Notes under the pieces: generated by a model
What the model was told of the DNA's origin: nothing
Seen by the model: only the letters and a program-made list of their open reading frames with translations
Database searches by the model: none
DNA from: Phycisphaerae bacterium
GTDB taxonomy: Bacteria; Planctomycetota; Phycisphaerae; Sedimentisphaerales; Sedimentisphaeraceae
Direction: 5' to 3'
Assembly: GCA_027078365.1 (NCBI GenBank)
Contig: JALWYQ010000034.1
Coordinates: 477 to 64,476, forward strand
DNA: 64,000 nt
Part shown: positions 26,301 through 44,772 of the stretch, one piece after another
How positions within the stretch are numbered: the stretch's first letter is position 1
How the letters are laid out: each line of letters begins with the position of its first letter
Made by a program: the position numbers and the translations under genes

Positions 26301-29300
26301 CAAACCGTCATCATCGGTGACAGTTAGAACGATTGTGTGAACTCCAACCGTAAAATCGCTCTTATTGAATGTTGAATTTGTGGAAAGGATTGTAGCGCCT
26401 TCTTTCCACTCGTAAGAAGCTATAGTACCATCCGCATCAGAGCTGCCAGTACCATCGAAACTTACAGTGTCACCATCGTTAACCTCTTGATCACTTCCGG
26501 CATCAGCAGTCGGTGCTCCGTTAACAGTTATCACAACTGTGTCAGTATCTGTTAGTCCATCATCGTCTGTTACAGTTAAGACGATCGTATGAGTACCGAC
26601 TGTAAAGTCACTCTTATTAAAAGTTGAACTAGTTGAAAGAACCGTAGCTCCCTCTTTCCACTCATACGAGGCTATTGTGCCGTCTGCATCGGAGCTACCA
26701 GTTCCATCAAAGCTTACGGTTGCGCCATCGTTAACCTCTTGATCACTTCCGGCATCGGCTGTTGGAGCTCCATTGACTGTGATAACGACTGTATCAGTAT
26801 CGCTCAATCCATCATCATCAGTAACAGTTAGAACTATAGTGTGTGTGCCAACAGTGAAATCACTCTTATTAAAAGTTGAACTAGTTGAAAGAACCGTCGC
26901 ACCTTCTTTCCATTCATACGATGCGATTGTGCCATCAGCATCGCTACTGCCTGTTCCATCAAAGCTTACGGTGTCGCCATCGTTAACGTCTTGATCGCTT
27001 CCGGCATTGGCAGTTGGTGCACCGTTGACAGTAATGACTATTGTGTCAGTATCGGTTAGTCCATCGTCGTCTGTAACAGTCAAGACGATTGTGTGCGTAC
27101 CAACGGTGAAATCACTCTTATTAAAAGTTGAACTAGTTGAAAGAACCGTAGCTCCCTCTTTCCATTCATAGGAGGCGATAGTGCCGTCCGCGTCGCTACT
27201 ACCAGTTCCGTCGAAGCTAACGGTTGCGCCGTCATTGACGTCTTGGTCTGCACCAGCGTCAGCGGTCGGTGCTCCGTTGACTGTGATTACGACTGTGTCA
27301 GTATCTGTCAATCCGTCATCATCTGTTACAGTTAAGACGATCGTGTGAACTCCAACGGTAAAGTCGCTCTTGTTAAATGTTGAGCTAGTTGAAAGAACTG
27401 TAGCACCTTCCTTCCACTCGTATGAAGCGATTGTACCATCCGCATCAGAGCTGCCTGTACCATCGAAACTTACAGTTGCGCCATCGTTAACCTCCTGATC
27501 TGCGCCAGCATCGGCGGTTGGTGCTCCGTTGACTGTAATTACAACTGTATCTGTATCGGTCAATCCATCATCATCGGTTACTGTTAGAACTATCGTATGA
27601 GTACCGACTGTAAAGTCGCTCTTATTAAATGTTGAGCTAGTTGAAAGGACGGTAGCACCTTCCTTCCACTCGTAAGAAGCGATAGTTCCATCTGCATCGC
27701 TACTGCCTGTACCATCAAAGCTTACTGTATCGCCATCGTTAACTTCCTGATCTGCGCCAGCATTAGCAGTCGGAGCACCGTTTACTGTAATTACAACCGT
27801 GTCAGTGTCAGTCAATCCATCATCATCTGTAACTGTCAAGACGATCGTGTGAACGCCAACCGTAAAATCACTCTTGTTGAATGTAGAATTTGTTGAAAGG
27901 ATTGTAGCTCCTTCTTTCCACTCATACGAAACTATTGTGCCATCTGCGTCAGAGCTACCAGTACCGTCAAAACTAACGGTTGCGCCATCATTAACTTCTT
28001 GATCGCTTCCGGCATCAGCGGTTGGTGCGCCATTGACTGTAATGACAACTGTATCAGTATCGGTTAAATCGTCGCTATCTGTAACGGTCAAGACGATTGT
28101 GTGAACTCCAACTGCAAAGTCACTTTTATTGAATGTTGAACTGGTTGAAAGAACTGTTGCTCCTTCTTTCCATTCGTAAGATGCGATTGGGCCATCAACA
28201 TCAGAACTGCCAGTACCATCAAAACTTACAGTATCGCCATCGTTGACTTCTTGGTCGCTTCCTGCGTTGGCTGTTGGATTGTGATTTACTCGCTCATCTC
28301 CAGAAACCATATTTGTTACACGGTCTTGAATTTCTCCTTTGCTTAGAACTCTATTTTCGATACTAAATTCATCTATAACATAGCTATCACAATCAGATAA
28401 GTACCCACCTAATTTTATTTTACTATTAGCGTTGTCTTTAACGTCCCAACCAGTAACATCAATAAGGTATTTATCTTCTGCTATTAGATTTCCACTTGAA
28501 TCAAACTGGCGCAGGCAACATTCCTCTACATCTAAATCAACCGTAAATGCAAAGTAAACCCAGTCATTTCTGACGTAAGAGTTTGTATCCGTTGACGATT
28601 CTAGTCTACCACCAACTCCATCATCATAGAAAAACATTCTGGCTCTACCACTAATACCAGGCGCGAACCAAACAGATGCATAGTCATTGTCGTTACCAAT
28701 TTCAAATAACTTTGCAGCAACATAATCTGTTCCTACAATCTTAAACCAGCATCCAACTGTAATACCACCAGATGTCTGGCTCGTATAATCAACGTTACCA
28801 TCTCCTGCATCAAATGTGATATTATCCCCATCAGTGTCAAATGATAAAGCATTGTTTGATGGGCTACTTCCCGCAAAGAATCCCGTAGCGGTTATAGGAT
28901 TAGTCAAGGTTGCTATCTTTGAGCCTATAGCATAATCATCATTATCTAAATTGATGTCCCAGCTGGAAGTGTCGTTAAAGTGCGCTAGAAAAGTCAGAGG
29001 ATCTTCCTTGTCATGAATCCTTACAACAACGTCATCTGTATCAGAATTGCCTTCATCATCGGTAACGGTCAATGTTATAATATGAGTCCCAACAGCAAAA
29101 TCGCTCTTATCAAAAGAAGAAGCAGAACTTAAAGTTGTTCCATTCTCTTTCCAAACATAAGAAGCGATAGAACCATCTGCATCACTACTTCCGCTAGCAT
29201 CAAGCGTTACATTTGTACCAACTAAAACTCCTTGATCATCGCCGGCAACAGCAACGGGAGTACCGTTTGGCAACAGTTCATAATTGTTTACCATTCTATG

Positions 29301-32300
29301 CACACGGGATTCAATTTCTGTCTGTGTAAGAACCCTATTATCAATAGAAAACTCATCCAACACATATCTATCAGCACTTGCTATATAATCACCAAGTTTA
29401 ATCACACTGTAAACATTATCCTTCACATCCCAACCAGTTACAGTAACAGAGAAGACATCCGTAGCAATGAGGGTGCCACTAGAATCGTATTGACGTAAAG
29501 TACATTCTTGAGAATCTAAATCAACTGTCAGAGCAAAATAGACCCAAGTATTTCTAATATATGAACTGGTATTCGTAGAAGATTCTTGGTAACCACCAAC
29601 TCCATCATCATAAAAATATACTCTGGCAATACCTTCGTTACCAGGAGCATACCACAGAGACACATAATCGTCATCATTACCAATTTCAAATAACTCTGCA
29701 CCAAGATAGTCGTTACCAATAATTTTCAACCAACAACCTACTGTAATACCTCCAGATGTCTGGTTTGTATAGTCAACATTTCCGTTAACTGCGTTAAATG
29801 ATATATTGTCATACCTAGCTACAAAAGAAAGTGCATTATTGGATGGAGTGCTTGTAGAGAAAAATCCTTCATAAGCTTCTGGATTAATGCATGTAGCTGT
29901 TCGTAAGCCAAATGCATAGTCATCGTTATTTAGATTAATATCCCAACTAGATGTGTCATTAAAGTGATCTAAGAAAGCGATTGTATCAGAGCTAGCACAA
30001 ACATTAACTACAATTTCATCTTTATTTATTGCTCCACCATCGTCAATTACAGTCAAGGTTATTGTGTGAGTTCCAACAGAAAAATCACTTTTATCAAAGG
30101 TAGAACTAGTTGAGAGTACAGTTGCCCCTTCCTTCCACTCGTAAGAAGAAATGCTTCCATCGCTATCACTACTGCCAGTTCCATCAAAACTTACTGTCTC
30201 TCCATCCATTACTTCTTGGTCTGCGCCAGCATCGGCAACTGGTATATCATTGCTACCTCTGAGTTCATTGCCATTAACCATATCAGTCACACGTGTTTCA
30301 ATCTCTGCTTGGCTAAGAACACGATTATCGAGAGAGAGCTCATCCATCCAAAAGTTATCAGCGTCCTGCTTGTAATTTATCTCTATCAGCGATGATGCCG
30401 AAGTTACGTCCCAACCGGTAACAGTTATAGCTCCTGTATATGGAGCAACGATAGAATCTCCATTGTTATCATATTGGTATATGGTGATTTGCGAATTCGC
30501 AAGGTCAACAGTAACGGCAATATAGATACTACTTGTAACACTAGAAGATGTATCAGTTGAAACAGTTACAGTTGTTAAATCATCATCATCCTTGAATGCT
30601 GCAGTCCATTTTCCAGTGCCTGTATAACCAAAATTTATCTGAATATAATCAGAAAAATCGCTGTTGTGTATTGTCACTGGTTTGACTGAAAGGTTTGATC
30701 CATCAAACGCACACCAAAAACCAATGGTCATTCCACCATCACTTGGGCAACTAACATTGCCATCATCGGCTTTGAACTTCAAAACTTCCGTATCCTGTGC
30801 ATAGTAACACCTATTTGCTGGGCTACTATTTGCAAAGAAACCAGTATCCCACGAAGGAGAATCTACAGATACTATCGCTTCCGTACCAGCTGCATAGTCA
30901 CCATTAGCAGTATTAATATCCCAACTAGAAGAATCATTGAAATGATCTAAGAAAGTTATTGAGCTGTATCTAGCGTCAATAGTTACAACGACCGTGTCTG
31001 TATCTGTTGCACCATCATCATCAGTAACTGTCAACGTAATAGTGTGAGTTCCAACAGAAAAATCACTCTTGGTAAAACTTGAAGAAGAACTTAAGACTGT
31101 TGCACCCTCTTTCCATTCATAAGAAACTATAGACCCATCAGAATCGCTACTTCCAGTTCCGTCAAGGGTTATGCTATTTCCATATTCCACTTCTTGGTCT
31201 GCACCAGCATTGGCAGTTGGAGCTATATTGTCGGCTAAGATTTTGATAGTAGATTTACTTGGATTCCCACTAATAGCAGAACCAAAGCTATCACTTTGGT
31301 CTAAACTGTTGCTATCGACTACTTCGTCTGTATCAGCAAAATCAGTCTCCACCGAGCCTTGAATATCGCCATTTGCGTCTGTTGCAATATCAGTTTCTTC
31401 AAGATATTGAAGAATTGACTGCCTCTGTTTTGTAATAACCCCAACATAGTAATCAAGATAATTAGATTCTTGCAATGTAAACTGATGCATTGTAGCTAAT
31501 GTATTGTCTCTCACAGGAGCATCAACTCTATTTTCAACATCATCACTGCAATCTACAACAGAAATATCTGAGAGGTCTTGCCCCTCTGGAGTGGAAAAGA
31601 CAACTAGCCTAGTTGGCTTATCAGTTGCTACAGACCAAGTATCGTCAATGTGAGTGATTGAAGTAATCACAGGTAAGTCAAAATTCAGATAATCAGGTTT
31701 GGCAGTTGCTGATAAAACAACATCTACCGTCTCGCTTTGTTTGTTAAATGCAACCTCAATTATAAATAGGTCTGTATCTATCTTGCGCAAACTAACTGCA
31801 CCAGAAGCGGATAGGTCACAGCCACTAAGTGAAGTATCTGAAGTATCAAGCTCTATTGCAATAGGAACTGTGAATATATCAACCAATCTTGCAGGGACAA
31901 TATTAGGGTCGTCACCAGCCACTTTCCAGTAGCTCATCATCCACTCTGGCACATCATAAGAAACGGAGATTCTCAAAGCCCCATCTTCATCGACAAGGCT
32001 AACAGAACTAATATCTCTGAGCCAACGATATTGCATCGCCTCATCCGTAGTAACACACCCTACTGACTCGGGCTGTGAATCGATAGTGGCCCGTGCATAT
32101 CTACTAAAGTCATAGAGTTTGACATACTGTGGATTATCATTCCAAAATGCATAATCCTCATACCAGCCACCGTTCTGGATTTCTCTACCTAGAAAGTCCA
32201 TAGCCAATACATATCCATCGTAAGAATCGTAACCGCCGCCATCGTATATTGCTGGATCAGAATCCATACGGGTTGTTAGTTTATAATTCGTATATATTGA

Positions 32301-32912
32301 CGGGTCTGTGAGCGATTCGTATTGAGTTCCGCCAGTATCGCGACCGCAAGCGCCAAGCAAGTATGTATCTATGTATGATTCATACTTTGGTGAGTCATTC
32401 TGGTATGAACAAGTTGCTGGAAAAAGACCGAAAACTCTTCTATGCCAGCTAACCTGATACTGCATAAGCTCATCAATATTATCAAAATCTACGTAATCAA
32501 ATGTCTTTATCCCTGCAATTCCATGATCGCTTTTAGTGTTTGTATCACAGGATTGCATCTCAACACTGTATTTGAGCCTAGCAGTCTGATTGATATCTTT
32601 TTGTTCATCTAATGAGAGATAACCATCGTAGCCTATTTGCCAAGGATCAGTATTAACCGTGAATTCTAGATTGAATTTAAATGCACAGGCCTCTCCGTAG
32701 TAAACGGATTTTAATGTCGGAACTGACGTAGAATGAGAAAAGCTAGAATCAAAACCGTGATAATGATTGCAGACCGCAACACTGCCAGCACGTAACGGTA
32801 CCGGTAGTAATAGAAATACCGCTACAATCATCAAAAATTTGATAACCGAAACTAGCAACCTCTCTTCACTTCTTTTTTTTTCATCACCAAATTTATAAAA
32901 AATTGTTAACAC
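20325..32912 (-). CDS. Giant secreted surface/adhesin-like protein (4195 aa): unknown N-terminal region, three PKD-LamG modules, then about 31 further PKD-like domains
   Basis: Single uninterrupted ORF. N-terminal hydrophobic signal (FLMIVAVFLLLPVPLRAGS). PKD signature (DGTGSSDxDGxIxSYEW...GxHTIxLTVTDDDG) about 34 times. LamG/Laminin_G_3-like blocks ending DE(F/L)S(I/L)(D/E)NRVLSxxEI. GTG start at 32912 is uncertain; the first internal ATG is at 32831. Confidence 0.9.
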   Translation of the reverse strand: MLTIFYKFGDEKKRSEERLLVSVIKFLMIVAVFLLLPVPLRAGSVAVCNHYHGFDSSFSHSTSVPTLKSVYYGEACAFKFNLEFTVNTDPWQIGYDGYLSLDEQKDINQTARLKYSVEMQSCDTNTKSDHGIAGIKTFDYVDFDNIDELMQYQVSWHRRVFGLFPATCSYQNDSPKYESYIDTYLLGACGRDTGGTQYESLTDPSIYTNYKLTTRMDSDPAIYDGGGYDSYDGYVLAMDFLGREIQNGGWYEDYAFWNDNPQYVKLYDFSRYARATIDSQPESVGCVTTDEAMQYRWLRDISSVSLVDEDGALRISVSYDVPEWMMSYWKVAGDDPNIVPARLVDIFTVPIAIELDTSDTSLSGCDLSASGAVSLRKIDTDLFIIEVAFNKQSETVDVVLSATAKPDYLNFDLPVITSITHIDDTWSVATDKPTRLVVFSTPEGQDLSDISVVDCSDDVENRVDAPVRDNTLATMHQFTLQESNYLDYYVGVITKQRQSILQYLEETDIATDANGDIQGSVETDFADTDEVVDSNSLDQSDSFGSAISGNPSKSTIKILADNIAPTANAGADQEVEYGNSITLDGTGSSDSDGSIVSYEWKEGATVLSSSSSFTKSDFSVGTHTITLTVTDDDGATDTDTVVVTIDARYSSITFLDHFNDSSSWDINTANGDYAAGTEAIVSVDSPSWDTGFFANSSPANRCYYAQDTEVLKFKADDGNVSCPSDGGMTIGFWCAFDGSNLSVKPVTIHNSDFSDYIQINFGYTGTGKWTAAFKDDDDLTTVTVSTDTSSSVTSSIYIAVTVDLANSQITIYQYDNNGDSIVAPYTGAITVTGWDVTSASSLIEINYKQDADNFWMDELSLDNRVLSQAEIETRVTDMVNGNELRGSNDIPVADAGADQEVMDGETVSFDGTGSSDSDGSISSYEWKEGATVLSTSSTFDKSDFSVGTHTITLTVIDDGGAINKDEIVVNVCASSDTIAFLDHFNDTSSWDINLNNDDYAFGLRTATCINPEAYEGFFSTSTPSNNALSFVARYDNISFNAVNGNVDYTNQTSGGITVGCWLKIIGNDYLGAELFEIGNDDDYVSLWYAPGNEGIARVYFYDDGVGGYQESSTNTSSYIRNTWVYFALTVDLDSQECTLRQYDSSGTLIATDVFSVTVTGWDVKDNVYSVIKLGDYIASADRYVLDEFSIDNRVLTQTEIESRVHRMVNNYELLPNGTPVAVAGDDQGVLVGTNVTLDASGSSDADGSIASYVWKENGTTLSSASSFDKSDFAVGTHIITLTVTDDEGNSDTDDVVVRIHDKEDPLTFLAHFNDTSSWDINLDNDDYAIGSKIATLTNPITATGFFAGSSPSNNALSFDTDGDNITFDAGDGNVDYTSQTSGGITVGCWFKIVGTDYVAAKLFEIGNDNDYASVWFAPGISGRARMFFYDDGVGGRLESSTDTNSYVRNDWVYFAFTVDLDVEECCLRQFDSSGNLIAEDKYLIDVTGWDVKDNANSKIKLGGYLSDCDSYVIDEFSIENRVLSKGEIQDRVTNMVSGDERVNHNPTANAGSDQEVNDGDTVSFDGTGSSDVDGPIASYEWKEGATVLSTSSTFNKSDFAVGVHTIVLTVTDSDDLTDTDTVVITVNGAPTADAGSDQEVNDGATVSFDGTGSSDADGTIVSYEWKEGATILSTNSTFNKSDFTVGVHTIVLTVTDDDGLTDTDTVVITVNGAPTANAGADQEVNDGDTVSFDGTGSSDADGTIASYEWKEGATVLSTSSTFNKSDFTVGTHTIVLTVTDDDGLTDTDTVVITVNGAPTADAGADQEVNDGATVSFDGTGSSDADGTIASYEWKEGATVLSTSSTFNKSDFTVGVHTIVLTVTDDDGLTDTDTVVITVNGAPTADAGADQDVNDGATVSFDGTGSSDADGTIASYEWKEGATVLSTSSTFNKSDFTVGTHTIVLTVTDDDGLTDTDTIVITVNGAPTANAGSDQDVNDGDTVSFDGTGSSDADGTIASYEWKEGATVLSTSSTFNKSDFTVGTHTIVLTVTDDDGLSDTDTVVITVNGAPTADAGSDQEVNDGATVSFDGTGSSDADGTIASYEWKEGATVLSTSSTFNKSDFTVGTHTIVLTVTDDDGLTDTDTVVITVNGAPTADAGSDQEVNDGDTVSFDGTGSSDADGTIASYEWKEGATILSTNSTFNKSDFTVGVHTIVLTVTDDDGLTDTDTVVITVNGAPTADAGADQDVNDGTTVSFDGTGSSDADGTIASYEWKEGTTVLSSSATFNKSDFTVGVHTIVLTVTDDDGLTDTDTVVITVNGAPTADAGSDQEVNDGATVSFDGTGSSDADGTIASYEWKEGATVLSTSSTFNKSDFTVGVHTIVLTVTDDDGLTDTDTVVITVNGAPTADAGSDQEVNDGATVSFDGTGSSDADGTIASYEWKEGATILSTSSTFNKSDFTVGTHTIVLTVTDDDGLTDTDTVVITVNGAPTADAGADQEVNDGATVSFDGTGSSDADGTIASYEWKEGATVLSTSSTFNKSDFTVGVHTIVLTVTDDDGLTDTDTVVITVNGAPTADAGADQDVNDGATVSFDGTGSSDADGTIASYEWKEGATTLSTSSTFNKSDFTVGVHTIVLTVTDDDGLTDTDTVVITVNGAPTADAGADQEVNDGDTVSFDGTGSSDADGTIASYEWKEGATVLSTSSTFNKSDFTVGTHTIVLTVTDDDGLTDTDTVVITVNGAPTANAGADQDVNDGATVSFDGTGSSDADGTIASYEWKEGATILSTNSTFNKSDFTVGTHTIVLTVTDDDGLTDTDTVVITVNGAPTADAGADQDVNDGDTVSFDGTGSSDADGTIASYEWKEGATVLSTSSTFNKSDFAVGVHTIVLTVTDDDGLTDTDTVVITVNGAPTADAGSDQEVNDGATVSFDGTGSSDADGTIASYEWKEGATVLNSSATFNKSDFTVGVHTIVLTVTDDDGLTDTDTVVITVNGAPTADAGADQEVNDGATVSFDGTGSSDADGTIASYEWKEGATVLSTNSTFNKSDFTVGTHTIVLTVTDDDGLTDTDTIVITVNGAPTADAGADQDVNDGATVSFDGTGSSDADGTIASYEWKEGATVLSTSSTFNKSDFTVGTHTIVLTVTDDDGLTDTDTVVITVNGAPTANAGADQDVNDGATVSFDGTGSSDADGTIASYEWKEGATVLSTSSIFNKSDFTVGVHTIVLTVTDDDGLTDTDTVVITVNGAPTADAGADQEVNDGATVSFDGTGSSDADGTIASYEWKEGATVLSTSSTFNKSDFTVGTHTIVLTVTDDDGLTDTDTVVITVNGAPTADAGADQEVNDGATVSFDGTGSSDADGTIASYEWKEGATVLSSSATFNKSDFTVGVHTIVLTVTDDDGLTDTDTVVITVNGAPTADAGADQDVNDGATVSFDGTGSSDADGTIASYEWKEGATILSTSATFNKSDFAVGTHTIVLTVTDDDGLSDTDTVIIKVNANSGAPVANAGVDQDVNDGATVSFDGTGSSDADGTITSYEWKEGATILSTSSTFNKSDFTVGVHTIVLTVTDNDGLTDTDAVVITVNGAPTADAGADKEVNEGEIVSLNGSGSSDADGSIASYEWKEGATVLSTSATFNKSDFTVGTHTIVLTVTDDGGLTDADTVVITINGAPIADAGSDQEVDFGSDVVLDASQSRDNDGSIVSYEWKDGTDVISNSPSFTKDDFSVGTHTLILTVTDNDGATDVDSVLVKINGEASSSVVYSAPSVRVLSMPYGLRKNVDRKIDSIQGDDVVFDVADVNADFSSSNVSCEWREGDKLLSKDKAFVKSDFSLGKHKVTLTLHDDGPARIYVFDVDVHENTNVKLVAEAGPDKMVFEGDVVTLDATKSWVSNGEIVSYQWFEGEELLSDEAVFEIDDLSVGRHSIQLRVIDSFGMDSEDTVNILVRPIPNLAPHAYAGSDQEIFEGDTIIFYGDNSFDEDGWIVSYQWSEGDTVLCDSPNFSVSDFPVGKHTITLAVMDNDGAVAHDKLVVVVKPVPNQVPVANAGEDKKVTEGKAVTFNGDGSFDEDGTIVSYVWREGSKILSSKSIFEKNDFAVGTHEIVLTVTDNSGAISRDTLNVTVLPKQKKNSIVKSPTKQDFTLGETVAFEADSKLKDGKKPISYKWQEGKEVLSRARKFSKDNFVVGDHLITLTITSEDGTKEQENVSIKVNSNKDSVARQ
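21970..28280. repeat. Tandem array of about 25 units of 252 bp (84 aa), each encoding a near-identical PKD domain
   Basis: Period verified by eye (22741 versus 22993). I counted 25 consecutive units of the type NGAPTADAG(A/S)DQ(E/D)VNDG(A/D)TVSFDGTGSSDADGTIASYEWKEGATVLSTSSTFNKSDFTVG(T/V)HTIVLTVTDDDGLTDTDTVVITV in the translation. Confidence 0.9.
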
Positions 32913-33436
32913 TACGTGTTTCCCATCTCACAGATTCCCCATATCCATTACCCAATATCTACCCTAAGAAAGGTCTTGATACTTGATAAGACCTTGACAA
33001 ACAAAGACTTAAAGAAGCAATACAAATCAGGAAACTCTTCATTAATTGCCCCTGATCAACAAAAATCTCAATTTCTCTGTTTGATAAAGCCTTATTAAAA
33101 AAAAAGAGACGTCTTTGTCTCTTATCTCTAGCAAAAAACCTTGCTTGAGAGCCAAATTATAAATCTTAGCGGTTCTCGTTAGTTTACCTAGAGCGATATT
33201 GACTACCCTTACCATGTATTTGTCGAATAACTACAATGGCAATTTAATCAATAAATTGGGTATTTAGCCCATATTCACTATTTTGAGTATTATCCGCAGA
33301 ATCGTTATTTCCCTTCTTTTACAACAAATATCACATAACAGAGCTACTATATTGCCCTCTAGTCTTGACAGGTCCACCGCTAGTACTTATTATTGCGGGC
33401 TTAATTATAAACCTTTTAGATAATTGGACTTGTATA

Positions 33437-36286
33437 ATGTCAGAGAAAAAGAATTACCGCAAAACGCTAAATTTACCTAAAACTGCATTTGCAATGAAAG
33501 CAAACCTTACCCAGCGTGAGCCGCAAATACGCAAAAGCTGGGAAAAGCAGAAGATGTACGATACAATTCGCGCACAAAGAGAAAATGCCCCCAAATACAT
33601 ACTCCACGACGGCCCTCCATACGCCAACGGTGATATACACATGGGACATGTTATCAATAAGGTATTAAAAGATATTGTCCTAAAATACAAGACGATGCTC
33701 GGTTACGACACGCCTTACATCCCAGGCTGGGACTGCCACGGACTTCCTATCGAAGTGAAGGTTATGGCTGAATTGGGTGAGAAGGCTTTGGATATGGATA
33801 AACTAGAAATCCGTAAACGATGCCAAAAATACGCAAGCAAATACGTCAAGCTACAATCAAAACAATTTAGCGATCTCGGCGTCTTTGCTGATTACAAAAA
33901 TCCATACCTCACCATGAAACCATCTTACGAAAGGGGTATTTTAGAGGTATTTGCAGAGCTAGTCGAGCAGGGAATAGTCTATAAACAGCTCAAACCAATC
34001 CATTGGTCAATCGGCTGCGAAACTGCTTTAGCAGATGCAGAACTAGAGTATAAGGATATTAGCTCACCTAGTATCTATGTTAATTACCCTGTTGATGCCG
34101 ACACAAAAGCCAAGATGTGCGAGCTAGGCCTTTGCAATCAAGACGAGGAAAACGTCTATTTTATGATTTGGACAACAACTCCTTGGACTCTGGTTGCAAA
34201 CTTAGCGGTGGCTGCGCACCCTTCTATCGAATATACCTCGCTTAGATACGATATTGGCGGCAAAAAATGTGTCTCTATTGTAGCGGCACAAAGAGCTGAA
34301 GCAATAGCGAAAGCTCGCGGGCTTGAAGAAGGTCAATACTCAATTTCCGACGTTAGAGTCAGGGGAGAGGAGCTAGAAAAGCTAAGATATAAACATCCAT
34401 TCGTCGAGAAGAACCCTACCGAAAATGATGCATATTTTGTAATAAATGCACTCTACGTTACTGTTGAAGACGGAACAGGGCTCGTTCACATTGCCCCAGG
34501 CCACGGTAGCGACGACTATATGGCTGGTCAATCCTATGGGCTATCGATATATTCACCTGTCGTCGATAACGGCGATTACGATGAGACCGTACCAGAGTTT
34601 TTAAAGGGTCAAAATGTACTCAAGGTAGATCCAGTTGTTATTGAAAAACTAGAAGATCTTGGCCTACTATTCGCAAGAAAAGACATTCTCCATAGCTACC
34701 CGCATTGCTGGCGTAGCAAAATGCCTGTGATATTTAGGGCTACAGAACAGTGGTTTATCAGTGTTGATAAGAAAGTTGCAAATCGAGGTAAATCTCTGAG
34801 GGAACTAGCGCTAGATTCGACATCAGATGTTAAATGGATTCCAGCTTGGGGCGAAAAGAGGTTGCGTGGAATGCTTGAGTCTCGACCTGACTGGTGCATT
34901 AGCCGCCAAAGGGTCTGGGGATTGCCAATCCCAGCATTCTACAACTCTAATGGAGATACGCTACTAACGGCAGAATCTGTCAGGGCTACGGCGAAATACA
35001 TTGGAGAAAAAGGCTCAAACGGCTGGTTTAGCGATTCTCCAAAAGAAATACTCGGCGAAGACTTCAAACTTCCAGAAGGATTTAGCTGGGACGACTTACA
35101 CAAAGAAGAAAACATCTTTGACGTTTGGTTTGAGAGCGGTTGTAGCTGGCATAGCGTTGCAAAAGCAGCCGGTTGGGATGTTCCTGTTGATCTGTACCTA
35201 GAAGGTAGTGACCAACACAGAGGCTGGTTCCAACTATCCATGTTGCCAGCACTTGGCGCAACCGGCAAACCTCCCTTCAAGAGCGTTCTAACTCATGGAT
35301 TTACTGTTGACGCCAAAGGAATGAAACAGTCAAAATCGCTAGGCAACTATGTAAATGCCCAAGAGGAAATCCAAAAGTACGGCTCTGACATATTGCGTTT
35401 ATGGGTTTCAAGCGTAAATTACCAAGAAGATATGCGCTGTAATGATGAAATAATTGGCAGACTCCAAGATGCGTATAGAAAAATCAGAAACACCTTGAGA
35501 TATCTATTTAGCAACATAGATGATTTTGATCCTACAACTCAAGCAGTAGCGACTAAAGATATGGTTGAGATTGACCGCTGGGCACTCTCTCAATACAAAA
35601 AACTCATAGAGCACGTCTTAGCTGCATACGAGGATTTTGCGTTCCATAAAGTCTTCTCATTAATCTACAACTTCGTAACGGTAGATATGAGCAATATCTA
35701 TATGGATGTTTTAAAAGACAGACTCTACTGCGACGCCAAAGAAAGCCAGTTGCGTAGAAGCGCCCAAACAACAATGCACATTATCCTTGATGGCTTAATC
35801 AGACTCATTTCTCCAATATTGGTTCATACTGCAGAGGAAGCTTGGGGCAATTTGAAGTTTAAAAGCCAAGACGTAGAGACTGTTCACCTAGCATTAATGC
35901 CAAAGGCTGACTCTGTGGATATCGATAGCAGTAATGATGCAAAATGGGATATAATCCTTGAAATTCGTGACGAAGCATTGCGCAGCCTAGAAGCTCTAAG
36001 AGAAGCGAAAGAAATCGCAAGCAATCAAGAAGCTATGATCGTTGTAAGTAGCAATAACCAAGAAATCATGGAAGCTCTAGAAATGATTGGCGAAGAGCAA
36101 TTCGCCTCACTTTGCATCATAAGCGAAGCAAAGTTCGAAAAAAGCGATACAGACACAGTAATCAAAGCAAGCAAATCTCCACATAGTAAATGCGAGAGAT
36201 GCTGGAATTACTTACCTTCAGTAGGCTCAATAAGCGAGAGTCCTGACTTATGTCAAAGATGCGCAGATGTTGTAAATTGCTCATAA
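33437..36286 (+). CDS. ileS: Isoleucine--tRNA ligase
   Basis: MSEKKNYRKTLNLPKTAFAMKANL start. HMGH (HIGH) motif, KQSKS (KMSKS) motif, CP1 editing insertion, C-terminal zinc knuckle CERCWNY...CQRC. I prefer the ATG at 33437 over the TTG at 33365 used by the track. Confidence 0.95.
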   Translation: MSEKKNYRKTLNLPKTAFAMKANLTQREPQIRKSWEKQKMYDTIRAQRENAPKYILHDGPPYANGDIHMGHVINKVLKDIVLKYKTMLGYDTPYIPGWDCHGLPIEVKVMAELGEKALDMDKLEIRKRCQKYASKYVKLQSKQFSDLGVFADYKNPYLTMKPSYERGILEVFAELVEQGIVYKQLKPIHWSIGCETALADAELEYKDISSPSIYVNYPVDADTKAKMCELGLCNQDEENVYFMIWTTTPWTLVANLAVAAHPSIEYTSLRYDIGGKKCVSIVAAQRAEAIAKARGLEEGQYSISDVRVRGEELEKLRYKHPFVEKNPTENDAYFVINALYVTVEDGTGLVHIAPGHGSDDYMAGQSYGLSIYSPVVDNGDYDETVPEFLKGQNVLKVDPVVIEKLEDLGLLFARKDILHSYPHCWRSKMPVIFRATEQWFISVDKKVANRGKSLRELALDSTSDVKWIPAWGEKRLRGMLESRPDWCISRQRVWGLPIPAFYNSNGDTLLTAESVRATAKYIGEKGSNGWFSDSPKEILGEDFKLPEGFSWDDLHKEENIFDVWFESGCSWHSVAKAAGWDVPVDLYLEGSDQHRGWFQLSMLPALGATGKPPFKSVLTHGFTVDAKGMKQSKSLGNYVNAQEEIQKYGSDILRLWVSSVNYQEDMRCNDEIIGRLQDAYRKIRNTLRYLFSNIDDFDPTTQAVATKDMVEIDRWALSQYKKLIEHVLAAYEDFAFHKVFSLIYNFVTVDMSNIYMDVLKDRLYCDAKESQLRRSAQTTMHIILDGLIRLISPILVHTAEEAWGNLKFKSQDVETVHLALMPKADSVDIDSSNDAKWDIILEIRDEALRSLEALREAKEIASNQEAMIVVSSNNQEIMEALEMIGEEQFASLCIISEAKFEKSDTDTVIKASKSPHSKCERCWNYLPSVGSISESPDLCQRCADVVNCS

Positions 36287-36530: not shown

Positions 36531-36559
36531 TTGCAATTAGAGTCTATTAGCGATATTAT
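36531..36559 (+). promoter_or_regulatory. Sigma70-like promoter TTGCAA-17-TATTAT for PEP-CTERM paralogue 1
   Basis: Read directly. The same architecture recurs at 37421 and 40038, each followed by (T)(A/T)GGAC. Confidence 0.45.
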
Positions 36560-36679
36560 TGGACTCTGAAAGGAAATCAATAGTAGGAAAAAGGAATTAC
36601 TAACTAAAATAAGGCAATCACTAACAAATTCATCTGGTGAGGGTCTTGAACACTAATCCATCAATCGGAAGGAAGAAGC

Positions 36680-37225
36680 ATGAAGAAGGTCTTACTTGTA
36701 GCCCTCTGCGCTGCGCTAATTAGTACTGCATCCGCAACAACCACCCTATCAGGCACATTCTCAAAAGCAACGGGAGATTTCTCGAAGGCAACTTGGGAGT
36801 ATACTAACTCAGGGGACAGTTTTCTCTTGAAAGGTTACGGCCCAGAAACAACAGATCCTCAACTCGTATGGACTGTCGCTGGAGACATAGACGCTAGTAA
36901 CGTAGAAATAACTCTACTACCTGCAGGTAACTGGGATCCTCTATATGATGGAACCTACACCGCAGACGCAGCAGAATTCACAGACTACGGCTCATTTAAA
37001 CTCTTAATGACAGCAGCAAGCGATGCTGGTCAAAAGAGTTATAATGGCACTCTATACGACATCACAATTGAATTTCAGGCACAAAGCTGGGTCGTTGGTG
37101 ATTATGATGCCAATGAATTCACAAACGCAAGAATTGCCCTTACCGGCAATCCAGTTCCAGAACCAGCCACTATGGCTCTTTTAGGTCTCGGCGGGTTGTT
37201 TATTGCAAGAAGAAAACGTAACTAG
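36680..37225 (+). CDS. PEP-CTERM-anchored secreted protein, paralogue 1 (181 aa)
   Basis: Signal peptide MKKVLLVALCAALISTASA. C-terminal VPEPATMALLGLGGLFIARRKRN (PEP motif, TM helix, basic tail). Family motifs TWEYTNSGDSFLLKGYG, AEFTDYG, FQAQSWVV. Confidence 0.88.
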   Translation: MKKVLLVALCAALISTASATTTLSGTFSKATGDFSKATWEYTNSGDSFLLKGYGPETTDPQLVWTVAGDIDASNVEITLLPAGNWDPLYDGTYTADAAEFTDYGSFKLLMTAASDAGQKSYNGTLYDITIEFQAQSWVVGDYDANEFTNARIALTGNPVPEPATMALLGLGGLFIARRKRN

Positions 37226-37272
37226 AAAGTTTTGATCCAAATAAAAACTTGATAAAAAACGCTTTTAAAAGT

Positions 37273-37304
37273 TCCTCTCGAGGTTTTGAGAGGAGCTTTT
37301 TTTT
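37273..37304 (+). terminator. Intrinsic terminator after paralogue 1
   Basis: tcctctc-gaggtttt-gagagga, then gc and T8. Confidence 0.6.
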
Positions 37305-37420
37305 GAGGCTAAATAAAACTCTAAACCACTTTAACAGCTACAGTTGCAGTATAAAAAGTCAATCGGTTGCCTCACCCGAGGTAATCCTAGTAATTACAAT
37401 TAAAAACTACCATTTTTTTC

Positions 37421-37449
37421 TTGCTATAAAAACCGCTTCGTGCTATTAT
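37421..37449 (+). promoter_or_regulatory. Sigma70-like promoter TTGCTA-17-TATTAT for paralogue 2
   Basis: Read directly. Followed by tataggac, as at 40061. Confidence 0.45.
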
Positions 37450-37571
37450 TATAGGACCGTGATAGGAGGTCGCGGAGAAGTAGTAAAGGGAGTAAATTAA
37501 CTAATTGAGATAAGTAGCTAGTCGTGCGCTATCTTATCGGACACTAATCCATCAATAGGAAGGAAAAGAAA

Positions 37572-38192
37572 ATGAAGAAAGTATTGTTAGTAGCGCTTTT
37601 GTGCACAATGGTAGGCATCGTTTCAGCATCAACAACACCTCTAGAGGATTCACCTTATTACACTGATTCAGGAGTCTTCTCTCTTGCAAATGGTGGCTTC
37701 TCATCAATGACTTGGGCGTACGATGACAGCAACAAAGACTCATTTACGCTTAAGGGTTATGGTTTTGCTGATTCATCAACACCTACTACAAATCCAATCT
37801 GTGTAATTACAGGTGATCTAAGTGCAAGTAACATTGTATCTAACGTTTCAGTTGTATTAAACAATGCACTCGCTGTAGGCGTATGGAGCGACCTTTACAA
37901 TGGCACATACACTATAGCAGAAGCTGAGTTCACTGATTACGGAATGTTTAGATTACTTATGACTGCTGGAGCAACTACAGAAGGTGAGACAGCGAACCAA
38001 ATAGTATACGATGGACAACTTTACGATAGAGGACTTGAGTTCCAAGCTCAAAGTTGGGTTGTAGAGGATTACACCGCAGGAAACTTCACTAACGCACAAC
38101 TTACAATCGCTAGCGTTCAAGTTCCAGAACCAACTACAATGGCGATTCTTGGCTTTGGTGGTTTACTTGTTGCGATGAGAAGAAGGAAATAA
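37572..38192 (+). CDS. PEP-CTERM-anchored secreted protein, paralogue 2 (206 aa)
   Basis: Signal peptide. C-terminal VPEPTTMAILGFGGLLVAMRRRK. Shares TLKGYGFAD, YNGTY..EAEFTDYG and FQAQSWVVEDY with paralogue 3. Confidence 0.88.
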   Translation: MKKVLLVALLCTMVGIVSASTTPLEDSPYYTDSGVFSLANGGFSSMTWAYDDSNKDSFTLKGYGFADSSTPTTNPICVITGDLSASNIVSNVSVVLNNALAVGVWSDLYNGTYTIAEAEFTDYGMFRLLMTAGATTEGETANQIVYDGQLYDRGLEFQAQSWVVEDYTAGNFTNAQLTIASVQVPEPTTMAILGFGGLLVAMRRRK

Positions 38193-38218
38193 GCAATTAT
38201 AACTTGCTATTTAAAAAA

Positions 38219-38252
38219 GGGCTTTTTTCAGCGATGAAAAAGCCCTTTTTTT
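38219..38252 (+). terminator. Intrinsic terminator after paralogue 2
   Basis: gggcttttt-tcagcgatg-aaaaagccc followed by T7. Confidence 0.75.
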
Positions 38253-38566
38253 ATTGTTTGCATTATTATTTTTAGGAAAACTTGACATACAAATCTATAT
38301 AGCAATCGCAGCTACTCTGTTTAGACTAGTCCATTACTCTTGAATTTTATCTTTTTCACACGAAAAGTGCGTTTTTTAAGGTCAGAATTGAATATTATCG
38401 GATTTTTATTCATTTTCCCTTGAAAATTTATAATCGAGTTTTACCATTTATAGTGAGGTGGAGGTGATTGAAAAGGCATGAGTTTATCGAGTGAATCACA
38501 AATGAGCCTTCAGATGGAGGTGCTGTTGGCTCGAATGCTAATCAATCAAATAGGAAGGAAAAGAAA

Positions 38567-39190
38567 ATGAAGAAGATGCTTTTTACCTTGGCTCTGTGCG
38601 CTATTTTTAGCGTGGCAACCGCAACACCAACCCCTCTTGGAAATTGTCCAGATTATAACGCGGGAGTTTTTACTATTGAAAATAGTGGATTCTCGTCAGC
38701 TACCTGGACATATGACGACACGAGTAAAACATCATTTACTGTCAAAGGTTATGGTTTTGCCGATACTGCATTAACCGTACCAACTACAGACCCAATCCTT
38801 GAGGTTACAGGAACTCTATCCGGTGGCAGTGTTGCAAATGTATCTCTAAAGCTAGACAACACTGGTGCCATAGGCGTCTGGGACGACATCTACAACGGCA
38901 CATACGTTGTAACAGAAGCTGAGTTCACTGATTACGGTGACTCATACAAACTACTCATGGTCGCTGCTGGCGCTGGAGAAGATGAAACAGCTAATCAAGT
39001 CGTCTACAATGGATGCACCTACAAAAGAGGTTTTGAATTCCAAGCTCAAAGCTGGGTCGTTGATGATTATGACGATAATCAATTAACTAACGCACGCCTT
39101 GCGCTAACTAGCAAACCTATCCCAGAACCGGCAACTTTGGGAATTCTAGGACTTGGTGGCCTAATTATTGCGATGAGAAGACGCAGATAA
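38567..39190 (+). CDS. PEP-CTERM-anchored secreted protein, paralogue 3 (207 aa)
   Basis: Signal peptide. C-terminal IPEPATLGILGLGGLIIAMRRRR. No clear terminator before paralogue 4 (93-nt gap). Confidence 0.88.
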   Translation: MKKMLFTLALCAIFSVATATPTPLGNCPDYNAGVFTIENSGFSSATWTYDDTSKTSFTVKGYGFADTALTVPTTDPILEVTGTLSGGSVANVSLKLDNTGAIGVWDDIYNGTYVVTEAEFTDYGDSYKLLMVAAGAGEDETANQVVYNGCTYKRGFEFQAQSWVVDDYDDNQLTNARLALTSKPIPEPATLGILGLGGLIIAMRRRR

Positions 39191-39283
39191 TCTTATTTTT
39201 TCTTAAGTTACTCAGGCGATTATAGGCAAAATATCGCCAAGAATCCTTAAAATCTAATCTACCATCAAAGGGAAGGAAACGAA

Positions 39284-39787
39284 ATGAAAAAGCTATCTTT
39301 ATTACTATTATGTGCATTAGTTGTTGGTGTAGCTTCAGCGGCTACTTTCACCCTAAACAAAGGTGAGGGAATTTATGATTTCTCATGGGCAAGCTGGGAG
39401 TACACTAACTCAGGCGACAGCTTCTTGCTAAAGGGATTTGCTGCTGGCGACCCAAGTACACAAGTTTGGGAAGTAACAGGTGATATCGCTACAGGCGATC
39501 AAGCAACTAACGTTGTGATAGATCTGTTCTCAAATGGTCCATGGGACGTAGCTTACGCTGGAACATACTACGCAACCAATGCTCTATTCACCGACTTCAA
39601 AAAGTTTAGAATCATGCAAGCTGCAGCAAATGATGCCACAGTTAGCTTTGAAGGTCAAAGCTGGATTGCTTCAGGTGATTATGCCAATAATGAATTTTCT
39701 CGCGTGCAGATTATAGTTCCAGAGCCAGCTACAATGGCACTTCTAGGTCTTGGTGGCTTGCTTGTTGCCGCAAGACGCAAAGCATAA
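39284..39787 (+). CDS. PEP-CTERM-anchored secreted protein, paralogue 4 (167 aa)
   Basis: Signal peptide. C-terminal VPEPATMALLGLGGLLVAARRKA. The N-terminal half is nearly identical to paralogue 5. Confidence 0.88.
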   Translation: MKKLSLLLLCALVVGVASAATFTLNKGEGIYDFSWASWEYTNSGDSFLLKGFAAGDPSTQVWEVTGDIATGDQATNVVIDLFSNGPWDVAYAGTYYATNALFTDFKKFRIMQAAANDATVSFEGQSWIASGDYANNEFSRVQIIVPEPATMALLGLGGLLVAARRKA

Positions 39788-39813
39788 GCACTCGCAAGAA
39801 AAAGATAACTAAA

Positions 39814-39845
39814 AGGACTCTCCAGCGATGAAGAGTCCTTTTTTA
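39814..39845 (+). terminator. Intrinsic terminator after paralogue 4
   Basis: aggactct-ccagcgatga-agagtcct followed by a T-run. Confidence 0.7.
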
Positions 39846-40037
39846 TTGACTAAGCTAACATTCTAGGCCACTTGCCTAGAGTAAAATAATGAGCTAATGG
39901 TCACAGCCAATTGAAATACGCTAAAAAGAGCATCTTTCAAAATGCCTCTTAATAAAAAAAACTTTCCTTTTTAACTGCAAAAACCCGCCTTAAAGGCCTT
40001 AAAAACGGGTTTTATCGGCACTAACCCTAAATTTTAT

Positions 40038-40066
40038 TTGAGATAGCATTAAAATTTAATTATTAT
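40038..40066 (+). promoter_or_regulatory. Sigma70-like promoter TTGAGA-17-TATTAT for paralogue 5
   Basis: Read directly. Followed by aggac. Confidence 0.45.
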
Positions 40067-40133
40067 AGGACACACAAGGTATTACTAAAGAATTACTAAT
40101 CTAACCATCAATCAAAATAGGAAGGAAAAGAAA

Positions 40134-40637
40134 ATGAAGAAATTACTACTAGTGTTGTTATGCGCAGCAATTGTTAGCGCAGCTTCAGCGGCTACTTTCA
40201 CCCTAAACAAAGGTGAGGGAATCTATGATTTCTCAAAGGCTACTTGGGAATATACCAACTCAGGTGACAGTTTCTTGCTAAAAGGCTTTGCTGCTGGCGA
40301 TCCAAGTACACAAGTTTGGGAAGTAACAGGCGATGTTGCTGGAAACAACCAAGCTACTAATGTTGTTATCAATCTATTCAACAATGGCCCATGGGATGCT
40401 TCTGACGCTGGCATATACAATGCTGATGATGCTCAGTTCACTGACTATGGAAATCAATTTAGACTTCTAATGACTGCTGCAAGCAATGCAGACGTAAGCT
40501 TCGAAGCTCAAAGCTGGGTTGTTGATGATTATGCAGCTAACGAGTTTACTCGCGTACAAATCGTTGTTCCAGAGCCAGCTACAATGGCAATTCTAGGTCT
40601 TGGTGGTTTGCTAGTTGCTGCAAGACGCAAAGCGTAA
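40134..40637 (+). CDS. PEP-CTERM-anchored secreted protein, paralogue 5 (167 aa)
   Basis: Signal peptide. C-terminal VPEPATMAILGLGGLLVAARRKA. Confidence 0.88.
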   Translation: MKKLLLVLLCAAIVSAASAATFTLNKGEGIYDFSKATWEYTNSGDSFLLKGFAAGDPSTQVWEVTGDVAGNNQATNVVINLFNNGPWDASDAGIYNADDAQFTDYGNQFRLLMTAASNADVSFEAQSWVVDDYAANEFTRVQIVVPEPATMAILGLGGLLVAARRKA

Positions 40638-40664
40638 GAAAGATAAAACAACAAAACACTCAAA

Positions 40665-40697
40665 AGGACTCTTCAAAATGAAGGGTCCTTTTTTTTA
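40665..40697 (+). terminator. Intrinsic terminator after paralogue 5
   Basis: aggactctt-caaaatg-aagggtcct followed by T8. Confidence 0.65.
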
Positions 40698-43062: not shown

Positions 43063-44772
43063 TTAGAACTTTCTAGAACGCTCTAAAACATCCCTTAATT
43101 TCTCTACAACTTCAGTAACTTCCTTTTCTTCCAGCGATAAAATATCACGCAATGCCTCACCAATATGTGGCAAGTACGTCTGGATGTAGCTACGTTTTGA
43201 AAGCTCTTGCTTTATTCTTTTTTGCCTTCTAACGTGCTGGCCAAGCTTGCGCCCACATTCTTGAACGGCAAGTTTGATTTCCTTTATAATCTCTGGATAA
43301 TGCGCAATGGCCTCTTTACTTTCTGATGTAAATGGAACCCACACACTCGCAATGTGAACCATAAGCACCATAGGACCACTCGGCAATGCCCCCCTACTCT
43401 GACTTATGCCATAATTGCGCCAATTTGTATCTACTACCGCTTTGTAGATGGCACCTCCAGATTGTTGATAAAGCAGAGGCACACGGTTGGCAATACGCTT
43501 TAATTGCATAAGTGGTGCCCTATCATCATCGTCTTTCTTTTTAGCTTTTGGATCCTTTACACCATAAGCTAGCGCAGCTTCTATTAAAAACGGATTGCCT
43601 CGATACACTGACGGACGTCTCGTACAGGTTGCGTAAAATTCTGCATCAACTACCCTGCGCAGCCCTTCTTCAAGACGCTCTTCTCCAATCGGGCCAATAC
43701 AACTTGTACTTGGTGCCATAATCTTGGTTTCATTGATTGATTTATGCAACGCCTCAATCTCTTGAAGAGTTGCTTTGGATGGCTTCAACTGCAAGCTAAG
43801 ATTGGCATTCTTAGTTATTTGCTTTGCAAGATTGGTGCTAACTCTTGAAAAATCTTCATGTAAAAACTGAGGTATCTTCTTTGCCTTACTCTCACGCGCC
43901 ATCTTGAAAAGCATTCCAAGTTCGACACCGTAAGGGTGAGGTTTAATCTCAACAGGAATAAAAGGAAGCTCACTACTTTGGCGTTTGTACTCATGGCACA
44001 TTCCATCTGGTGAATAATAGATTATTGTCGCATGTGGATTTGCCATTGCAGTCTGAGAGATATACTCATCAACGCTTTGCTTGCCCTTTAAATATTTACC
44101 CTCAAGGGTTATAACAACTTGAGTACCTGTCGGTAAATCAAAATCACATTCAGAATCCATAATAACATCTGGTTTGTTTTTAGATGTATCAATCTGAACA
44201 TGACAATGATAAGCTGGCTTATTAGGTGACGTTCGTGAGATAACTTCAACTGGCTCGCCTGTTGTAATTAAACCATACATACCAGCAGCACTAATTCCTA
44301 TTCCTTGCTGGCCACGACTCATCTTTAGAGAGTGAAACTTGCTTCCATACAACAGTCTTGCAAAGATATTAGGAACTTGCCTTTTAACAATACCAGGACC
44401 ATTATCCTTTATTGTTATCTTATACTTGTTATCTGTGAGTTGCTTTATAATGACTGTGATATCTGGCAGAATGTGCGCCTCTTCACAGGCGTCAAGTGCA
44501 TTATCTACCGCTTCCTTTACGGTAGTTAGTAACGCCTTGCGGGGATTATCAAAGCCGAGGAGGTGCCTGTTTTTCGCAAAGAACTCACTAATACTGATAT
44601 CACGTTGCTTAGTAGCCATAGACTCGGCCGTTGCACCGCTTCTCTTCTTGGGCTTACTTTTTGCTTTTTGTTTCGGTGTTGTCTTAGTCTTTTCTGTATG
44701 TTCTTGGCTAACTTCTTCACTATCAAACGCAAAACCAAGCTGATTTACATCATCAACTTTTCTTACTGCCAT
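43063..44772 (-). CDS. top6B: DNA topoisomerase VI subunit B (archaeal-type GHKL ATPase)
   Basis: ISEFFAKNRHLLGFDNPRKALLTTVKEAVDNALDA (N-box), IKDNGPGI...FARLLYGSKF (G1), KPHPYGV, RIANRVPLLYQQ, HIASVWVPFTSESKEAIA. These line up with the Sulfolobus Top6B sequence as I recall it. It carries an extra, roughly 55-aa Lys-rich N-terminal tail. Confidence 0.88.
   Translation of the reverse strand: MAVRKVDDVNQLGFAFDSEEVSQEHTEKTKTTPKQKAKSKPKKRSGATAESMATKQRDISISEFFAKNRHLLGFDNPRKALLTTVKEAVDNALDACEEAHILPDITVIIKQLTDNKYKITIKDNGPGIVKRQVPNIFARLLYGSKFHSLKMSRGQQGIGISAAGMYGLITTGEPVEVISRTSPNKPAYHCHVQIDTSKNKPDVIMDSECDFDLPTGTQVVITLEGKYLKGKQSVDEYISQTAMANPHATIIYYSPDGMCHEYKRQSSELPFIPVEIKPHPYGVELGMLFKMARESKAKKIPQFLHEDFSRVSTNLAKQITKNANLSLQLKPSKATLQEIEALHKSINETKIMAPSTSCIGPIGEERLEEGLRRVVDAEFYATCTRRPSVYRGNPFLIEAALAYGVKDPKAKKKDDDDRAPLMQLKRIANRVPLLYQQSGGAIYKAVVDTNWRNYGISQSRGALPSGPMVLMVHIASVWVPFTSESKEAIAHYPEIIKEIKLAVQECGRKLGQHVRRQKRIKQELSKRSYIQTYLPHIGEALRDILSLEEKEVTEVVEKLRDVLERSRKF

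Follow-up and report, generated by a model that had tools for sequence, protein, structure and literature searches.

The closest described relatives of the genes considered here are systems in which a secreted protein carries a C-terminal sorting tag. The best known of these follows the general PEP-CTERM/EpsH sorting model (PMC1569441), whose typical genes show little homology to known proteins, stand in single-gene operons behind long upstream regions, and belong to recent, lineage-specific expansions of paralogues (Haft et al. 2006, PMC1569441). In floc-forming Betaproteobacteria one such gene, pepA, is RpoN-dependent (PMC9850573), while proteins bearing two other tags, GlyGly-CTERM and MYXO-CTERM, are exported through a type II secretion system (T2SS; PMC11980579). 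Here we describe five tandem genes from a Phycisphaerae bacterium, lying between positions 36531 and 40697 of a 64,000-nucleotide stretch (hereafter the window; assembly GCA_027078365.1, contig JALWYQ010000034.1, positions 477 to 64,476 of the forward strand). They encode a small, acidic, aromatic-rich, all-beta secreted protein family that is both real and unnamed. Judging from the sequence features set out below, we consider it likely that these proteins are exosortase substrates, processed at the PEP motif and placed on the cell surface or in an exopolysaccharide matrix. The five genes are as follows, with the ratio of non-synonymous to synonymous substitution rates (dN/dS) where given, and protein lengths in amino acids (aa):

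36680-37225, + strand: gene 1, 181-aa PEP-CTERM protein, subtype 1; orthologue in the sister species 92% identical, dN/dS 0.05
37572-38192, + strand: gene 2, 206-aa PEP-CTERM protein, subtype 2/3; dN/dS 0.26
38567-39190, + strand: gene 3, 207-aa PEP-CTERM protein, subtype 2/3; two cysteines kept in orthologues; dN/dS 0.15
39284-39787, + strand: gene 4, 167-aa PEP-CTERM protein, short subtype; dN/dS 0.17
40134-40637, + strand: gene 5, 167-aa PEP-CTERM protein, short subtype

The paralogy of these genes is not due to chance, because their products align from end to end, each being 51-63% identical to the product of gene 1 and 44 columns showing no variation, and because tblastn searches of one copy against another give E-values of 1e-10 to 1e-73. 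A first-pass annotation, made from the letters of the window, had recognised five tandem paralogues with shared motifs, each composed of a signal peptide, a mature domain of 120-165 aa and a PEP-CTERM tail, and this description holds throughout: the motifs TW.Y, SF.LKG, FTDY and QSW are among the invariant columns, and the mature domains measure 124-164 aa (13.5-17.6 kDa, isoelectric point about 4), with 13-17% aromatic residues and 15-22% serine plus threonine. All five N-termini begin with MKK, followed by 12-14 hydrophobic residues and A-x-A at positions 17-19, which reads as a signal peptide, and in the predicted structure an N-terminal helix (residues 3-14) stands apart from the mature domain. 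At the other end, every protein matches both the Pfam PEP-CTERM model PF07589 (25.3-31.5 bits against a cut-off of 20.7) and TIGR02595 (21.7-26.9 bits against 16), and in all five the tail match stops at the last or second-last residue.

Between signal peptide and tail lies a domain that curated libraries do not recognise. Scanned alone, the mature domains produced no match in Pfam or NCBIfam, catalytic families included, and a profile built from them matched no PDB sequence; since all three are blank once the tail is removed, we regard the domain as an unnamed family, much as the first-pass annotation had supposed, and these scans brought up no characterised protein to which it might belong. 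The full-length proteins do return many sub-threshold NCBIfam matches to named PEP-CTERM families, every one of which vanishes when the tail is taken away. Among these, the best match reaching past the tail was floc_PepA (NF033554), at 25-37 bits for full-length genes 2-5 against a cut-off of 80; the score came from the tail only and was gone without it, and homology to floc_PepA was rejected.

An AlphaFold model of the mature domain of gene 1 reached a confidence (pLDDT) of 81 when built from five sequences and of 90-97 when built from 19, making this a confident all-beta prediction. About ten antiparallel strands form a beta meander, with one long hairpin (108-121 and 124-136) and short helical turns. 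The variability that had been remarked within the mature domain takes the form of indels distinguishing the subtypes, which the alignment and the model together assign to loops and to the long hairpin's tip. Foldseek searches with two models against the PDB, and with one against viral predicted structures, returned nothing with E below 0.01 or a template-modelling (TM) score above 0.3, the best PDB match being insignificant (E 0.04, TM < 0.3). The weak neighbours are curved antiparallel-sheet binders or carriers (LolA, LpqN, avidins, PYL/START and YceI), and are a hint at most.

That hint nonetheless defines an alternative, in which the proteins would be surface-displayed binders of a small hydrophobic ligand or glycan, engaged in nutrient or cofactor scavenging, with paralogues diversified in specificity, and would not be structural matrix components. 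It would account for the character of the weak neighbours, all of them ligand binders or carriers, for the high aromatic content and invariant tryptophan and tyrosine residues, and for the placement of variable loops between conserved strands; but the structural matches are all insignificant (E > 0.04, TM < 0.3), the domain has no known binding-site motif, and neither transporter nor catabolic genes are linked to it. We regard a scavenging role of this kind as improbable.

The reading that we prefer, of exosortase substrates, has candidate enzymes in the genome. There are two exosortases (PF09721, 185 and 104 bits), both located outside the window, in which the first-pass annotation had likewise seen none; that annotation had named a genome devoid of exosortases as grounds for refuting it, and this genome is not one. 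With 131 bits, the enzyme on contig C45 exceeds the generic 8TM_EpsH cut-off (105.6) but reaches no subtype cut-off, with 140 bits for XrtA (cut-off 208) and 145 for XrtW (cut-off 425). Its neighbours are a polysaccharide exporter (EpsE/Wza-like) and a PrsT-like tetratricopeptide repeat (TPR) protein of 1558 aa, which scores 181 bits against PrsT, where the cut-off is 312. The weaker, divergent exosortase, on contig C15 (G000:C15:47703-50799 = L013:7703-10799), adjoins a 737-aa autotransporter with type V secretion system (T5SS)/PEP-CTERM-associated repeats. By motif scan the genome contains about 44 PEP-CTERM open reading frames, and these include other tandem sets, one of four and one of two on C45 and a further pair on C15 (G000:C45:50141-54246, C45:11043-12257 and C15:30024-31459); tandem expansion is thus habitual in the PEP-CTERM repertoire of the genome at large.

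In proposing how such a protein might reach the surface, we envisage four steps. First, the signal peptide would direct export through Sec and be cut after A-x-A, near residue 19. Second, the (V/I)PEP motif, glycine-rich helix and RR(K/R) cluster would anchor the protein in the inner membrane, a topology suggested by a motif that is itself plain in the sequence. Third, by analogy with PEP-CTERM/EpsH systems, an exosortase would cut at PEP and hand the domain of 13.5-17.6 kDa to an acceptor; the likeliest enzyme would be the generic EpsH-type exosortase beside the polysaccharide exporter and PrsT-like TPR protein. Fourth, and speculatively, exit from the periplasm might proceed through a T2SS whose genes lie next to what is probably the ancestral copy of the family.

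This copy is one of seven in the genome, an assembly of 2.29 Mb in 45 contigs that is 86% complete. Tblastn and a mature-domain profile search located five in the array and two elsewhere: a sixth at C42:32189-32797, flanked by a MiaB-like gene and by genes for glutamate synthase, and a seventh at C44:12324-12863, directly 3' of a complete T2SS-like cluster. The reading frame is intact in all seven. Tblastn also matched contig C37, while the profile search of the genome returned only the seven copies; a protein on C10 was rejected as a member, the hhalign probability for its mature part being 0.5%.

Further afield, an exhaustive search of 1.84 billion representative proteins, made with a profile built on the mature domains of all five genes, gave seven matches, of which six were real and the other, P0013, was rejected as a junk tandem repeat. 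When 5.8 billion clusters were queried by word index with an alignment of 14 sequences, about a dozen true members emerged, while all weaker matches had the signal peptide and tail alone in common with the family; P0017, P0018, P0022, P0028 and P0041 were rejected as distant members on this ground. In an order-wide survey of 401 genomes from 146 genera the family occurs only in this genome, with its seven copies, and in one genome of the same genus, whose five matches come from a fragmented assembly and are hence a lower bound. No member is present in five further genomes that belong to the same taxonomic family and are 97-99% complete. In Phycisphaerae bacterium isolate S145_28, a metagenome-assembled genome of the same genus, at least four array genes stand 3' of ileS before the contig stops; in other genera we found no array adjacent to ileS, the genes 3' of it being unrelated. 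The family is confined to two genus-level lineages of Phycisphaerae, and copy number among relatives, a comparison that the first-pass annotation had recommended, runs from 7 through at least 5 and 2 to 0.

Phylogenetic analysis yields four clades: the first is gene 1, the second unites genes 4 and 5 and the T2SS-adjacent copies, the third joins the C42 copy to genes 2 and 3, and the last is a distant pair that forms the outgroup, so that the three subtypes originally distinguished (1; 2 and 3; 4 and 5) reappear in the tree. Genes 1-4 have one-to-one orthologues in the sister species, and the array is therefore older than the split between the two. Genes 4 and 5 form an unresolved three-way split with a single sister-species orthologue, the sister contig stopping before a possible fifth gene; their similarity may reflect recent duplication or gene conversion, and the tree fits either. 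The copy beside the T2SS cluster on C44 is probably ancestral, and the array adjacent to ileS is a genus-specific expansion.

Against their orthologues, genes 1-4 have dN/dS values of 0.05, 0.26, 0.15 and 0.17, and the T2SS-adjacent copy 0.20, at dS of 0.5-1.2. The value for ileS is 0.03, and gene 1 is conserved like ileS (92% amino acid identity). These ratios indicate purifying selection, and we conclude from such sequence comparison that the family genes are functional. The notion that they are decaying duplicates, or chance open frames without present function, is for practical purposes refuted by values of 0.05-0.26 at this level of divergence; it also conflicts with the seven intact frames, with a leader and Shine-Dalgarno sequence conserved across genera, and with the confident fold prediction, and we hold it to be scarcely credible.

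The cluster that precedes the C44 copy encodes the secretin (GspD), GspE, GspF and GspG, then three pseudopilins and GspK, and finally a GspL-like protein and one of 173 aa; after it come the family member and, directly 3' of this, a 289-aa PEP-CTERM protein (G000:C44:13136-14005; L010:13136-14005). The latter has a GDSGGG motif and a sub-threshold match to Trypsin_2 (E 0.0011, 20 bits against a Pfam cut-off of 27.6); neither NCBIfam nor PDB sequences bore it out as a protease. Its position beside a T2SS cluster recalls the GlyGly-CTERM protease VesB. The same order of T2SS cluster, family member and 289-aa protein is found in the sister species (L004, L005, L006), and the distant lineage (L007-L009) has this arrangement with the family member and its PEP-CTERM neighbour in reversed order and the former present in duplicate, the GspL-like protein being 61% and the protease-like protein 63% identical.

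Such conservation invites a second alternative, which would have the family act as partner, substrate, inhibitor or adaptor to the trypsin-signature PEP-CTERM protein and be exported by the adjacent T2SS, and the ileS array an amplified set of such cargo, in parallel with the rhombosortase/VesB and myxosortase routes. The recurrence of the gene order in this genome, the sister species and the rearranged locus of the distant lineage argues for this, and T2SS export of tagged proteins has published precedents (PMC11980579); yet the trypsin assignment falls below the Pfam cut-off and finds no support in NCBIfam or PDB sequences, transcription of the family gene is insulated from that of the T2SS operon, all but one of the seven copies are located elsewhere, and sister genera do not have these genes at the site. 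We judge a module of this kind to be doubtful, if somewhat less so than the ligand-binding role discussed above.

Exosortase processing and delivery to the surface or matrix remains our preferred reading, and several observations must be weighed against it. Neither exosortase is adjoined by any member of the family. The C44 copy, which has a leader and a terminator to itself, is a transcription unit apart, and a strong 20-bp terminator hairpin ends the T2SS operon; since this terminator lies between them, we rejected co-transcription of the two. Three other genera of the taxonomic family have the T2SS cluster followed by uvrB and no PEP-CTERM gene, and the genome itself holds three secretins and several T2SS/type IV pilus (T4P) ATPases. 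Because clusters of the uvrB type occur elsewhere and there are multiple secretins and ATPases, the link to type II secretion may be inherited synteny only; as read from the sequences, it amounts to no more than an adjacency that two lineages have conserved. Nor is codon adaptation uniformly high: relative to a reference set from the ribosomal-protein, elongation factor and RNA polymerase region of contig C14, the index places the array genes between the 21st and 92nd percentiles and all seven copies between the 21st and 97th, a span that neither supports nor refutes the high abundance which the first-pass annotation had suggested in proposing that these might be structural surface proteins of a sheath, an S-layer-like coat or a matrix. 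The observations of that annotation are confirmed, and its interpretation is supported in part. Finally, we know of no organism in which the passage of PEP-CTERM proteins across the outer membrane has been explained.

The array itself would comprise three or four separate transcription units with a common leader and Shine-Dalgarno sequence, an arrangement that might serve dosage, surface variants or both. The expression signals are as follows:

36531-36559, + strand: promoter-like site of gene 1, TTGCAA-17-TATTAT, then GGAC as at genes 2 and 5; a consensus match only
36654-36679, + strand: leader and Shine-Dalgarno sequence of gene 1, TAATCCATCAAT-N-GGAAGGAA
37545-37571, 38539-38566, 39255-39283 and 40097-40133, + strand: leader and Shine-Dalgarno sequence of genes 2-5
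37274-37304, + strand: terminator-like hairpin and T-run of gene 1, read from the sequence and absent from the scanner output
37421-37449, + strand: promoter-like site of gene 2, TTGCTA-17-TATTAT, with TG
38213-38251, + strand: terminator-like hairpin of gene 2, from the scan
38420-38454, + strand: two overlapping promoter-like sites of gene 3, from the scan
39811-39844, + strand: terminator-like hairpin of gene 4
40038-40066, + strand: promoter-like site of gene 5, the best of the region, TTGAGA-17-TATTAT, 10/12
40662-40692, + strand: terminator-like hairpin of gene 5, from the scan

The first-pass annotation had described promoters close to consensus, strong terminators and strong Shine-Dalgarno sequences, and these claims have fared differently. 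Promoter-like sites do stand 5' of genes 1, 2, 3 and 5, three of them (genes 1, 2 and 5) having a homologous TATTAT..GGAC box in common, but the promoter scan as a whole does not rise above chance, with 12 sites found and 9.8 expected. Hairpins follow genes 1, 2, 4 and 5, but the 93 nt that separate gene 3 from gene 4 contain none; given this close spacing and the lack of a hairpin between them, these two genes are probably co-transcribed. No sigma-54 site (TGGC-N7-TTGCW, one mismatch allowed) was present in the five upstream regions. The Shine-Dalgarno claim stands: GGAAGGA lies 4-9 nt 5' of the ATG in all five genes, and the 3' end of the genome's 16S rRNA, GGATCACCTCCTTTCTA, can pair with it over 7 bp, one of them G-U. 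About 41% of long open reading frames in the genome carry the four-base Shine-Dalgarno core, which shows that the organism uses such sequences.

A further mark of the family is the leader of about 25 nt, TAATCCATCAAT-N-GGAAGGAA, which is kept 5' of the ATG in every member and in both genus-level lineages, although synonymous sites of the coding sequences are near saturation. Outside the window it is found at L010:12296-12323, preceding the C44 copy, and in L007 upstream of 8001 and near 9030. Across the genome, GGAAGGA-N4-9-ATG precedes nine open reading frames of at least 50 aa, and seven of the nine belong to this family. Folding of the leader RNAs gave nothing beyond shuffled controls, save for a weak recurrent UCCAUC/GAAGGA hairpin; a csrA homologue is present in the genome (G000:C31:69154-69309). 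Conservation of this sequence points to a possible shared translational control of the family.

The array is flanked on one side by ileS (33365-36286) and on the other by a cation-efflux gene in convergent orientation, past which lie glmM and further housekeeping genes. Two other genes of the window are recorded here in their own right. Upstream of ileS and divergent from it lies a giant open reading frame of 4195 aa with about 31 PKD domains (20325-32912, - strand), and at 43063-44772 (- strand) a 569-aa protein combines topoisomerase VI B-subunit transducer and GHKL ATPase domains, in a bacterial genome.

The features of this locus have close analogues in the PEP-CTERM/EpsH systems. As in the substrates of those systems, a signal peptide is paired with a C-terminal PEP motif, transmembrane helix and basic cluster; the genome has an exosortase, a polysaccharide-export gene and dozens of tagged proteins; and the genes form single-gene units with long upstream regions, have expanded in one lineage, and encode no recognisable domain besides the tag. 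What distinguishes them from PEP-CTERM substrates in general is that the mature domain constitutes a separate family, restricted to two genus-level lineages of Phycisphaerae, and that the upstream element is a conserved leader with its Shine-Dalgarno sequence, unlike the sigma-54/PrsR site of proteobacteria. We therefore see the family as an ordinary case of lineage-level expansion of PEP-CTERM surface proteins, which fits the description given in 2006 and whose value is incremental.

To our knowledge, PEP-CTERM proteins are among the least understood of environmental surface proteins, with function, acceptor and outer-membrane route known for almost none of them. To these the family adds a compact and well-modelled domain of 125-165 aa, seemingly easy to express and without a structural neighbour, together with a clear contrast in copy number and one conserved position adjoining a cluster for type II secretion. 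Exosortase biochemistry could employ it as a test substrate.

PepA of Zoogloea and Aquincola (NF033554; PMC9850573) is likewise a small secreted PEP-CTERM protein, and its working role, holding exopolysaccharide on cells, is of the same kind as that proposed here. Unlike the RpoN-dependent pepA, the array genes have no -24/-12 site 5' of them, and PepA is the nearest functional analogue of the family and not its homologue.

The GlyGly-CTERM/rhombosortase system, exemplified by VesB, and the MYXO-CTERM/myxosortase system (PMC11980579, PMC3237569) similarly employ a tripartite C-terminal tag that is removed by an intramembrane enzyme, and the presence of one family member and a trypsin-signature PEP-CTERM protein beside a T2SS cluster extends the likeness. 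However, both the tag and the class of enzyme are different, and a role for the T2SS in the present case amounts to adjacency only. A bolder proposal, to our minds a long shot, is that the family, whose beta fold has no neighbour among solved structures, and its trypsin-signature neighbour are dedicated cargo of the adjacent T2SS and that the leader TAATCCATCAAT-N-GGAAGGAA is a shared post-transcriptional control site. We know of no case in which a PEP-CTERM protein has been shown to depend on a T2SS. Were this proposal true, the locus would offer a first genomic clue to the passage of exosortase-processed proteins through the outer membrane, and would supply for exosortases a counterpart to the rhombosortase/VesB and myxosortase/T2SS routes.

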